Shown piece after piece: positions 251-53,928 of a stretch of 64,000 nucleotides of DNA. The DNA comes from Octopus vulgaris (lineage: Eukaryota). How positions within the stretch are numbered: position 1 is the stretch's first letter; the number at the start of each line of letters is the position of its first letter. The translations under genes were made by a program, and so were the position numbers. The notes below the pieces were generated by a model. It saw only the letters and a list, made by a program, of their open reading frames with translations. It did no database searches and was not told the DNA's origin. Location of the stretch: contig OX597817.1 of NCBI GenBank assembly GCA_951406725.2, positions 37,324,001 to 37,388,000 of the forward strand, given 5' to 3'.

Positions 251-315
<65 letters not shown>

Positions 316-8857: not shown

Positions 8858-9162
8858 GTGGAGGCACATGGCCTAGTGGTTAGAGCAGCGGACTCACAGT
8901 CCAGGGATCGCCGGTTTGAATCTCAGATCGGACAATGTGTGTGTTTATGAGCGAAACACCTAAGCTCCACGCGGTTCCGGCAGACGGTAATGGCGAACTT
9001 CTGCTGACTCTTTCACAACAACTTTCTCTCACTCTTTCCTCCTGCATCTAGCAGCTCACCTGCGACGGACCGGCGTCCCGTCCAGGTGGGGAACCTATAC
9101 ACCAAGGAAACCGGGAAACCGGCCCTATGAGCCAGGCGTGGCTCGAGAAGGAACAAACAACA
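8858..9162 (+). mobile_element. Full-length tRNA-derived SINE, family D, with (AAC)-type tail and target-site duplication
   Basis: A box tggcctagtgg and B box ggtttgaatc. Near-perfect 13-bp TSD acctcattaRact (8845-8857 / 9163-9175). Close paralog at 12085-12389. Confidence 0.9.
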
Positions 9163-12048: not shown

Positions 12049-12602
12049 CAGAGTGGCCCAAAAGTAGGTTTACAGTTATCACGTTGTTTGTTCCTTCTCG
12101 AGCCACGCCTGGCTCATTAGGGCCGTTTTCCCGGTTTCCTTGGTGTATAGGTTCCCCACCTGAACGGGACGCCCGTCCGTCACAGGTGAGCTGCAAGATG
12201 CAGGAGGAAAGAGTGAGAGAAAGTTGTGGCGAAAGAGTCAGCAGAAGTTCGCCATTACCTTCTGCAGGAGCCGCGTGGACCTTAGGTGTTTCGCTCATAA
12301 ACACACATATCGCCCGGTCTGATATTCGAACCGGCGATCCCACGACTGTGAGTCCGCTGCTCTTACAACTAGGCCATATGCCTCCATGTAGTTATCACGT
12401 AGGCACTTTAAATTTCTTTTAAAACATTTTATTACATTTAAATTTCTTTCTGACAAACTGAAAAGGGAGGTTGACAAAATTAACTAAACTAGCATAGAAT
12501 AATGGTTTCATATTTTTTTTATATAATTAAGATCTAAACCGTTAATAAATGAATGAGAAAGTGATAGTTGAATAACTGTAAACCTACTTTTGGGCCGCCC
12601 TG
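12049..12602. mobile_element. Tc1/mariner-type MITE interrupted by a SINE
   Basis: ~31-bp TIRs CAGAGTGGCCCAAAAGTAGGTTTACAGTTAT / ATAACTGTAAACCTACTTTTGGGCCGCCCTG, with TA on both flanks. Confidence 0.9.
12085..12389 (-). mobile_element. SINE family D nested in the MITE
   Basis: Reverse-complement paralog of 8858-9162; perfect 11-bp TSD agttatcacgt (12074-12084 / 12390-12400). Confidence 0.92.
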
Positions 12603-41323: not shown

Positions 41324-41767
41324 GGCGCAGGAGTGGTAAGTAGCTTACCACACAGCCACTCCTCGGTCGGCGGGCACCGGTGCTCCTCCCATTTTTATTC
41401 ATTTTTATCGTTATCATCCTCATCACATTACTGTCCTTGCCCAGCGCGCAGCTACTCTGTGTACTGCCTTTGTGGCAAACTATGTGAATAAAAGTAGCTT
41501 GCTTACCAACCACATGGTTCCGGGTTCAGTCCCACTGCGTGGAACCTGGGGCAAGTGTTTTCTACTATAGCCTCGGGCTGACCAAAGCCTTGCGAGTGGA
41601 TTTGGCAGACGGAAACTGAAAGCTCGTCGTATATATGTATGTATATATGTGTGTGTTTGTGTGTCTGTGCCCACCCCCAAACATCGCTTGACAACCGATG
41701 CTGGTGTGTTTACGTCCCCGTAACTTAGCGGTTCGGCAAAAGTGACCGATAGAATAAGTACTAGGCC
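41324..41767 (+). mobile_element. SINE family B, rearranged head, 3'-truncated
   Basis: Head ggcgcaggagtgg is followed by an inverted head copy and a ~130-bp unrelated segment; the body resumes at ~41492. Confidence 0.8.
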
Positions 41768-41799
41768 TTCACTACGGGTCGACAGTTAGGTGGGTATGA

Positions 41800-42285: not shown

Positions 42286-42676
42286 TATATATTTATGTAT
42301 ATATAATACAATGTACATTTAAACACATAATAGATGGCCATCACAAGACATCTGACCCGCTAGAAGGAGTAGTTAAACTCCAAACCACTATTCGGGGTAA
42401 TTTCGAAAGGGAATGAAAAATAAAAGCATTTATCCTCTGTCTTAGCTTTCCTACTGACGAGAGCTTCGCCAAGTAAATTTATTTATTTGCTGAAGAAGGC
42501 TTGAAACCATGGTATAGGAAATAGATGGTAAATATTTTTAGTTTTCATTCCCTTTCGAAAATAACCCCTAATAGTGGTTTGGAGTTTAACTTCTCCTTCT
42601 AGCGGGTAAGATGTCCTGTTATGGTTATCACTTATGTATTTAAATGTACACTGTATTTTTATATGAATAATATATA
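42286..42676. mobile_element. Fold-back element: ~155-bp imperfect inverted arms enclosing a hammerhead
   Basis: 42286-42440 aligns with the reverse complement of 42521-42676 (e.g. acccgctagaaggag.agttaaactccaaaccactatt / aatagtggtttggagtttaact.ctccttctagcgggt). Confidence 0.85.
42447..42521 (+). ncRNA. Minimal type-I hammerhead ribozyme motif (intact core)
   Basis: Stem I TTTCCTA/TAGGAAA; core CTGACGA (42454-42460); stem II GAGC.../...GCTT with an inner CAAGTAAAT/ATTTATTTG hairpin; GAAA (42503-42506); C-CATG-G; GUA site with predicted cut after 42514. Confidence 0.85.
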
Positions 42677-42751
42677 GTCTATTGATTAATATTTCGTCTC
42701 GCTAGACCACTGGTAGTAAAGAAATTTTCTAAATGTTTTTGCTACCCTGGA

Positions 42752-42814
<63 letters not shown>

Positions 42815-52811: not shown

Positions 52812-52860
<49 letters not shown>

Positions 52861-52888
52861 CGAGAATGAAGCAACAAGAATGGATAGG

Positions 52889-52981
52889 TTTTTAGTACAA
52901 TCGTTTCATACAAGGACAGGTTTTATTAAAAGTTGCAAAAATTACAGCATATAAACGTGTCCCGTACTCATCAGCTAAAAA
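52889..52981 (-). ncRNA. Minimal type-I hammerhead motif (left arm copy)
   Basis: Mirror of 53593-53686, lacking one A in stem II. Confidence 0.8.
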
Positions 52982-53592
52982 TACATGTGAGTTCTCTAGA
53001 CATCCTAGTGGTTGAGGCTATACTCATGAAGTAATGTAGATAATTAAGTAACATAAACAGATTTCAAAAGTTCATTAAAGTTCTTTAAAGATGATGTACA
53101 GTCTTATCACAGAATTTTAAAAAAGTCCTAATAGCATCACAGAGAAAGTGACCTAATCCATAGTGCACATATGAATTTCCAGAGATATGATGAGGGATTA
53201 CATACTCACAGAAGACAAATTTATCCATTGTTAATTACAACGAGGTGGGTTTCAATTCCTGCTTATTAGCATTACAGAGAGGGTGAATTAATCCTCTCTG
53301 TAATGCTAATAAGCAGGAATTGAAACCCACCTCGTTGTAATTAACAATGGATAAATTTGTCTTCTGTGAGTATGTAATCCCTCATCATATCTCTGGAAAT
53401 TCATATGTGCACTATGGATTAGGTCACTTTCTCTGTGATGCTATTAAGACTTTTTAAAATTCTGTGATAAGACTGTACATCATCTTTAAAGAACTTTAAT
53501 GAACTTTTGAAATCTGTTTATGTTACTTAATTATCTACATTACTTCATGAGTATAGCCTCAACCACTAGGATGTCTAGAGAACTCACATGTA

Positions 53593-53686
53593 TTTTTAGC
53601 TGATGAGTACAGGGACACGTTTATATGCTGTAATTTTTGCAACTTTTAATAAAACCTGTCCTTGTATGAAACGATTGTACTAAAAA
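53593..53686 (+). ncRNA. Minimal type-I hammerhead ribozyme motif with extended stem II
   Basis: Stem I TTTTTAG/CTAAAAA; core CTGATGA (53600-53606); 11-bp stem II GTACAGGGACA/TGTCCTTGTAT; GAAA (53668-53671); C-GATT-G; GUA site with predicted cut after 53679. Confidence 0.85.
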
Positions 53687-53828
53687 CCTATCCATTCTTG
53701 TTGCTTCATTCTCGCTTATAATCACCCCACATTACTGTATTGTTAAATCAGTATAGTTTTTTTTGGTGCATCTAAGTTAGGTACCATATTCAAGTAAATT
53801 CATTTAAATTAACTTGAATCTTTATTGC

Positions 53829-53928
53829 NNNNNNNNNNNNNNNNNNNNNNNNNNNNNNNNNNNNNNNNNNNNNNNNNNNNNNNNNNNNNNNNNNNNNNNN
53901 NNNNNNNNNNNNNNNNNNNNNNNNNNNN
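53829..53928. other. Assembly gap (100 N)
   Basis: Run of n characters. Confidence 1.

Follow-up and report, generated by a model that had tools for sequence, protein, structure and literature searches.

The long hairpin with a hammerhead ribozyme near its apex that lies in the window (the whole stretch of DNA analysed, 64,000 nucleotides of the Octopus vulgaris genome, from whose first letter all window positions are counted) is very probably a pair of 5'-truncated copies of an ORF-less repeat, set head to head in (TA)n DNA and likely written there in trans by the RT and endonuclease of a Penelope-like element (PLE). The repeat family as a whole behaves as a PLE-mobilised non-autonomous element, and the locus belongs to a known kind of insertion rather than to a new viroid-like RNA. 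Its features are as follows.

42286-42306, no strand: AT flank, (TA)n-like target DNA, from the sequence; the short ends of the family mostly enter (TA)n-like DNA.
42307-42438, minus strand: left arm, an inverted 5'-truncated unit copy (unit 242-373), 93% to the family consensus.
42439-42440, no strand: head-to-head junction at the distal edge of the stem I bulge, with a 1-nt gap between the arms.
42440-42655, plus strand: body of the right arm, a sense unit copy (unit 159-373) with the hammerhead, from alignment to the consensus.
42447-42521, plus strand: type I hammerhead, predicted cleavage after A42514, from the motif and covariation in 52 copies.
42656-42757, plus strand: one-sided tail of ~100 nt to the 'long' 3' end (unit 374 to ~480-490), from family comparison.
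42758-42812, no strand: right (TA)n target flank, from the sequence.

The insertion spans 42307 to about 42757. The outer limit of the left arm is the 'short' 3' end of the family and its 5' limit lies 8 nt 3' of the cleavage site; the right arm with its tail agrees with the consensus at 294 of 317 aligned bases. Both arms are 92-93% identical to the unit consensus, they differ from one another in 17 of 131 compared columns, and they carry 7 and 10 private changes, none of them shared. We infer that the locus is an old insertion under neutral decay, and it is ordinary, one decayed copy among probably a few thousand family members. The long imperfect arms described in an earlier note on this DNA are real, in that 42286-42438 aligns with 42523-42676 over about 153 bp. 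The outer limits then given, 42286 and 42676, were misplaced, since over the outermost ~20 bp the left flank pairs with the beginning of the tail only through the AT-richness of both. The one-sided tail of about 100 nt at 42656-42757, through which the element reaches ~42757, had been left out. Elsewhere in the window, positions 41500-41780 hold a common interspersed repeat which we take to resemble an octopus SINE, and two 269-nt inverted repeats (8859-9127 and 12118-12386), 92% complementary, lie 2990 nt apart.

The type I hammerhead is genuine, and every claim that had been made about its motif holds, from the presence of all core bases (CUGACGA, GAAA, GUA) to the predicted cut after 42514, N17 being A42514. 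Stem I consists of 7 bp between 42447-42453 and 42515-42521; the CUGACGA box occupies 42454-42460; stem II is formed by five pairs, G-U, A-U, G-C, C-G and U-G, between 42461-42465 and 42498-42502, with a distal stem-loop beyond; GAAA lies at 42503-42506; and stem III contains the perfect palindrome ACCAUGGU at 42506-42513. The label 'minimal hammerhead' does not fit, stem II being complete and greatly extended. Within the 64-kb window, Rfam gave no match at the gathering score, and none of the 18 matches at E<=10 belonged to a hammerhead family, so that the identification rests on motif and covariation; matches to Rfam miRNA families were rejected, being only low-score hairpin and AT-repeat matches.

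The predicted fold of 42286-42676 is very stable (-190.3 kcal/mol on the plus strand, z = -23.5, with 0 of 100 shuffles as stable), and that of the minus strand is equally so (-189.8 kcal/mol). Within the rod the active fold is less favourable than the minimum by 4.2 kcal/mol, and the pair probability of helix III is 0.01. The lone hammerhead of the locus is predicted to cleave poorly by itself, because short palindromic helices III impede cleavage of the monomer and work as a dimer, as described in PMC4209133. Of four sets of assembled contigs compared with the locus, those from two runs presumed to be RNA contain related copies, without cover over 42448-42519; such contigs show neither ends, strand nor level, and the gap in cover speaks neither for nor against transcription here.

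A search of the octopus's own genome (2.8 Gb) returned 2522 first-look candidates, the best 40 of which were scored, most of them matching the hammerhead and right arm only. The unit derived from the family is 477 nt long, with 34% GC, one hammerhead and a cut site after unit position 233. No long ORF common to the unit copies was found, which bears out the earlier description of the element as non-coding. One hundred distinct loci (149 fetched, minus overlaps) were obtained by three similarity queries and three exact motifs; they are the best-scoring or exact-motif copies and hence a non-random sample, the first query having favoured centred palindromes. In 20 of these 100 loci the unit end runs seamlessly into the unit start, the longest copy reaching ~1.5 units. 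The 5' ends of copies are variable. There are two fixed 3' ends, short at unit 373 and long ~100-115 nt further, both entering (TA)n-like DNA, a bias that was judged by eye from flank listings, without a null score. A sister subfamily of ~70-80% identity, with 510 matches to one motif, is built likewise in the 30 loci retrieved.

Arrays with two intact hammerheads were found neither among the loci nor by a search with a pair of exact motifs, which gave a single match unrelated to the unit and which divergent arrays could escape; locus L038 covers two hammerhead positions, the first core being mutated. One hammerhead on one strand alone cannot release a unit-length RNA. The GAAA-plus-palindrome word also occurs in an unrelated ~480-nt duplication at L250:1480-2100, which shows no similarity to the unit. 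On the sense strand, G>A exceeds C>T among differences of family copies from the consensus (85 against 62 per 1000, subfamily variants pooled), and no footprint of A-to-I editing was seen in the copies (sense-strand A>G 23.1, A>T 23.5 and T>C 18.5 per 1000). No published description of the 477-nt family was found in the literature; Repbase/Dfam or supplements (Craig 2021, preprint) may list the unit or the Hydra-clade family described below.

What is conserved across these copies is the hammerhead, as a feature of the unit; the rod is not the conserved object. The ribozyme alignment comprises 52 copies, three segments from L004 and L005 (palindromes, not ribozymes) having been dropped from 55, and both core boxes are intact in 46 of the 52. 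Pairing is kept in 90.2% of cells, against 27-48% in slid controls, with 92.7% of cells paired in stem I, 82.2% in stem II and 96.1% in helix III. Double changes number 38, vs 10.8 in shuffles, and affect 8 of 20 pairs; since the shuffles take no account of relatedness, they are to be read as few events. The covarying events comprise G-C/A-U exchanges at the base of stem I and, in stem II, swaps that distinguish the subfamilies. In the repeat's source RNA, the hammerhead is likely under selection.

The pair 10.1-11.1 at the studied locus is G-U, as had been stated; its attribution to CpG decay of this copy is rejected. Among the 52 copies the pair is G-U in 33, A-U in 2 and unpaired in 17, the canonical G10.1-C11.1 occurring in none, and G-U is therefore a family trait. 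An ancient change in the source element is possible. Axolotl HHR_Amex2 has a non-Watson-Crick U-U at the base of helix II, as described in the retrozyme literature (PMC7229834 / bioRxiv 10.64898/2026.07.22.740005). Helix III is a perfect 12-nt palindrome in 8 of 52 copies, in three different sequences, and on its sequence such a palindrome would permit a 4-bp stem and hence cleavage of the monomer. The 4-nt extension of helix III to a 12-nt palindrome is seen in the subfamilies of L042, L046, L052, L054, L055, L058, L059, L081, L088 and L209.

The head-to-head arrangement is common in the family (56 of 100 loci) and asymmetric. Among these 56, 45 combine one long with one short 3' end, none combines two long or two short ends, and in 11 one or both ends are degraded or otherwise different. 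In a sample selected by the tail only, 40 of 60 loci are head to head, 29 of those 40 without a complete hammerhead; among the 56, complete hammerheads number none in 33, one in 19 and two in 4. The 45 tail-plus-short loci occupy 42 distinct junction bins. These counts bear directly on the reading put forward in the earlier note, of a ~390-nt rod-folding, single-ribozyme element of MITE-, viroid- or retrozyme-like kind in which the whole palindrome, with its one apical hammerhead, spreads or works as an RNA. The stability of the fold and the intact core speak for such a rod, as do two further loci with a single apical hammerhead (L002 and L003, beside the studied locus, L001) and the recurrence of one junction, 197/212, in L004 and L005 on different contigs. 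Against it, these three similar loci are all that were found among the 56 and have three different junctions, the hammerhead of L002 sitting on the short arm; paralogs keep the arms and lose the core, the outcome that the note itself had named as refuting, the complete hammerhead being absent from 33 of the 56; neither strand folds better than the other; with a tail at one end only, the insertion is asymmetric; and the arms of the studied locus share none of their private changes. We consider a conserved rod very improbable, and a MITE- or viroid-like rod is rejected on the ground that copies share neither junction nor centre.

The arms give the same answer at the level of single mismatches. 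It had been noted that some changes in the arms are G-U-compatible, and indeed 4 G-U pairs occur among the 17 mismatches of the studied locus; 4 A-C mismatches occur as well, so that the G-U bias is absent and selection for G-U on the arms is rejected there. Over 36 loci, G-U and A-C mismatches number 113 and 121, the strand being arbitrary relative to transcription. As in hammerhead viroids and plant LTR retrozymes, the hammerhead lies within highly paired RNA; unlike theirs, the pairing here is a DNA inverted duplication with a variable centre, and no LTR/PBS/PPT layout was seen at the unit.

The form of the insertions is that of EN+ PLEs, which, as described by Craig et al. (2021, PMC8557442) and Arkhipova et al. 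(2013, PMC3846280), leave an inverted 5'-truncated copy, a tail at one end, partial tandems and (TA)n targets; all four of these insertion marks, each of which was tested, are found in the unit family, which also resembles EN+ PLEs in its type I hammerhead near the 3' end. The unit differs in having no ORF, an RT + GIY-YIG ORF inside it being absent, so that it is no autonomous PLE, and its autonomous parent was not found. Its tail, ~100-115 nt, is longer than the 30-40 nt published for EN+ PLEs and similar to that of a Hydra-clade PLE family of this genome. The link to Penelope-like elements and retrozymes drawn in the earlier note is upheld.

A purified PLE protein has been described in vitro as nicking and extending both target strands; it begins at two sites on the RNA, and these delimit the tail (PMC11167929). 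In the mechanism that we propose, the PLE protein would nick both (TA)n strands, and each 3'-OH would prime an antisense cDNA; the two cDNAs would begin at different start sites, one long and one short, both would stop early at correlated positions, and their 3' ends would be joined, with microhomology or a few extra bases at the seam, to give a head-to-head pair with one tail. At the studied locus the short-end cDNA would have ended 8 nt to the 3' side of the cleavage site and the tailed cDNA would have passed through the ribozyme, and this combination would leave one hammerhead as a single-copy spacer. In the source RNA the hammerhead would process multimers, probably as a dimer. Target-site duplications are unreadable inside (TA)n.

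The truncation points of the two arms correlate (rho 0.57, p = 0.0004, n = 35) and lie within 30 nt of each other in 16 loci, vs 8.4 in permutations, which points to synthesis of both arms in a coupled manner from a single template, or to fold-back. The junctions overlap in 34 of 56 loci (9 by >=5 nt) vs an exact-match null of 46% (0.6%), the observed overlaps being inflated, as they are taken from BLAST ends. The arm pairs hold 63 shared non-consensus bases vs 20.6 expected, with only 17 of 36 loci above their own expectation and the studied locus at 0. With the same family and the same PLE machinery, the inversion could have arisen by fold-back self-priming of one strand, or by later central deletion of a longer palindrome, an alternative that we regard as tenable and rather unlikely. 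The correlated truncations would fit either form. For fold-back there are, in addition, the variants shared between arms above expectation, the junctions that lie in small palindromes or hairpins (L074 at 231/231, L117, and a cluster in loop II comprising L004, L005, L010 and L012), the stem I complementarity, which could at the studied locus have returned the cDNA end onto itself, and the argument of Arkhipova et al. 2013 for self-priming, on an antisense template (PMC3846280). A snap-back of the cDNA, however, needs the tailed arm to be the longer, and it is the short arm that extends further 5', in 23 vs 10 informative tail-selected loci (p = 0.035) and in 28 vs 15 of all loci (p = 0.066), a pattern not expected of a tail-first cDNA that simply snaps back. 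It is possible that self-priming on antisense RNA, or later central deletion, is compatible with the count of 23 in 33.

Two observations on the junctions themselves may be added. Those of L004, L005, L010, L012, L200 and L207 fall close together within the ribozyme's loop II hairpin, which may be a hotspot for joining, L004 and L005 having the same junction. At L074:1730-1760 the fold-back is perfect, and its centre is formed by the four bases that surround the cleavage site.

Two PLE families of the same genome come into question as helpers. The window itself contains, at 52855-53830, a head-to-head 3' end of a Hydra-clade PLE, a palindrome whose arms (52855-53720) are identical at 422 of 423 aligned bases and carry one hammerhead each (52974 on the minus strand, 53600 on the plus strand), its right-hand tail being interrupted by an N gap. 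The family is young (1332 candidates, 99% identity among copies), and its long copies encode a 980-aa protein with RWK, DKT and CxCX5C, motifs given as defining for the Hydra clade in PMC8557442. An intact 980-aa ORF is found at L244:2504-5443 (minus strand); long Asn-rich inserts separate its RT from its endonuclease, and a 3' UTR of ~1.6 kb follows. Searched against Pfam, this ORF gave no match at E<=0.1. A search with the Hydra endonuclease domain yielded 18,399 candidates, of which the best 150 were scored and were dominated by one young family; from its sequences, the L244 family may be very large, active and invisible to Pfam. The second is a 781-aa RT-GIY-YIG family (L150-L161), with many intact copies and a CX4CX2C linker, whose sequence reads as Neptune-type. 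In 4 of 12 loci of this family the ORF is preceded, at some distance, by direct repeats of 300-500 bp, and near the 3' end lies a motif that resembles a hammerhead with the first box altered.

The unit shares with the Hydra-clade family a type I hammerhead with extended stem II, G10.1-U11.1 and the GUA triplet, together with tail-plus-short pairs (in 11 of 11 other Hydra-clade loci with both arms seen) and (TA)n flanks, the Hydra-clade tail measuring ~110 nt. The Hydra-clade family differs in being autonomous, young and without DNA similarity to the unit, and its hammerhead lies 35 nt from the short end vs ~130 nt in the unit. We lean, with some reserve, towards the Hydra-clade PLE as the helper; as neither PLE family shares DNA with the unit, it is from geometry and ribozyme style that the helper is inferred. 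No autonomous partner of the unit was found by the GIY-YIG family search, by DNA comparison or by tblastn of the Neptune-type and Hydra proteins against the family loci. Unit DNA compared with 30 GIY-YIG loci, 12 full Neptune-type loci and the Hydra 3' UTR gave similarity only in AT-rich ends, and no PLE ORF fragment contiguous with a family copy was found in the Neptune-type matches L118, L049 and L023 or in the Hydra match L202; the Hydra match L060 was checked by position only, and L106, L168 and L215 lay outside this reading.

That the short palindromes of the Hydra-clade family are 3' ends of a longer element raises the further possibility that the unit is no more than a pseudo-LTR, belonging as its 3' end to an autonomous PLE that is not represented by long copies in the sample, only the best 40 candidates per search having been scored. 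We think this improbable: in 20 of 100 loci what lies 5' of unit position 1 is the unit's own tail, not unique or coding DNA, and no upstream sequence in common is present among the loci of the main family or the 30 sister-family loci.

The unit also resembles the metazoan non-LTR retrozymes as described by Cervera and de la Pena (2020, PMC7229834) and by Li, Clavereau and Pollet (bioRxiv 10.64898/2026.07.22.740005), with which it has in common the lack of an ORF, a low GC content, a single type I hammerhead whose helix III is palindromic, a seamless junction from unit to unit and coexistence with PLEs. It differs from them in size, 477 nt being slightly above the published range of 150-450 bp, in being dispersed, with partial tandems to ~1.5 units and no array of two intact hammerheads found, and in that its copies, unlike retrozymes as described in these two sources, are mostly head to head with a tail. 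Because it exceeds the size range and the searches found no two-ribozyme tandem, the unit, known here from DNA only, is called retrozyme-like and is not filed as a non-LTR retrozyme.

A more specific and decidedly tentative reading is that the 477-nt unit is a retrozyme-type RNA which cuts itself in the germ line and which a Hydra-clade PLE retrotransposes by two-ended target priming, the cleavage being recorded in the genome. One cDNA would then run off the cleaved end of the RNA and the other read an uncleaved ribozyme, leaving an apical hammerhead; stem I complementarity would join the two cDNAs; and 5' ends would accumulate just 3' of the cut site. There is a hint of such an excess. Of 101 5' ends within unit positions 150-350, 15 fall at 231-242, the left arm of the studied locus being among them, with a single one at 221-230 (a priori p = 0.001, P = 0.07 after a scan of all windows); in the tail-selected sample 10 of 78 do so (p = 0.018, P = 0.67 after scan), the window 279-290 there holding 12. 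Five of the 20 junction-crossing loci start at unit 237-255. Stalling of the RT at stem I explains the excess equally.

PLEs are the proposed, unproven mobilisers of animal retrozymes, as put forward in PMC7229834, and a 2026 preprint argues for a PLE-retrozyme tie from co-occurrence and phylogeny (bioRxiv 10.64898/2026.07.22.740005). The octopus unit carries the marks of PLE integration directly and so bears on the mobilisation of animal retrozymes. The formation of PLE inverted ends and the cutting of their hammerheads in vivo are treated as unsettled questions in PMC8557442 and PMC11167929, and the tail-plus-short asymmetry, together with the correlation between truncation points and the slight surplus of 5' ends near the cleavage position, bears on these questions. 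If the unit is indeed a self-cleaving, retrozyme-type RNA moved by a Hydra-clade PLE, the family would provide genomic evidence that PLEs mobilise animal retrozymes, and its self-cleavage, if true, would be genomic evidence that cleavage in vivo shapes PLE-type insertions.
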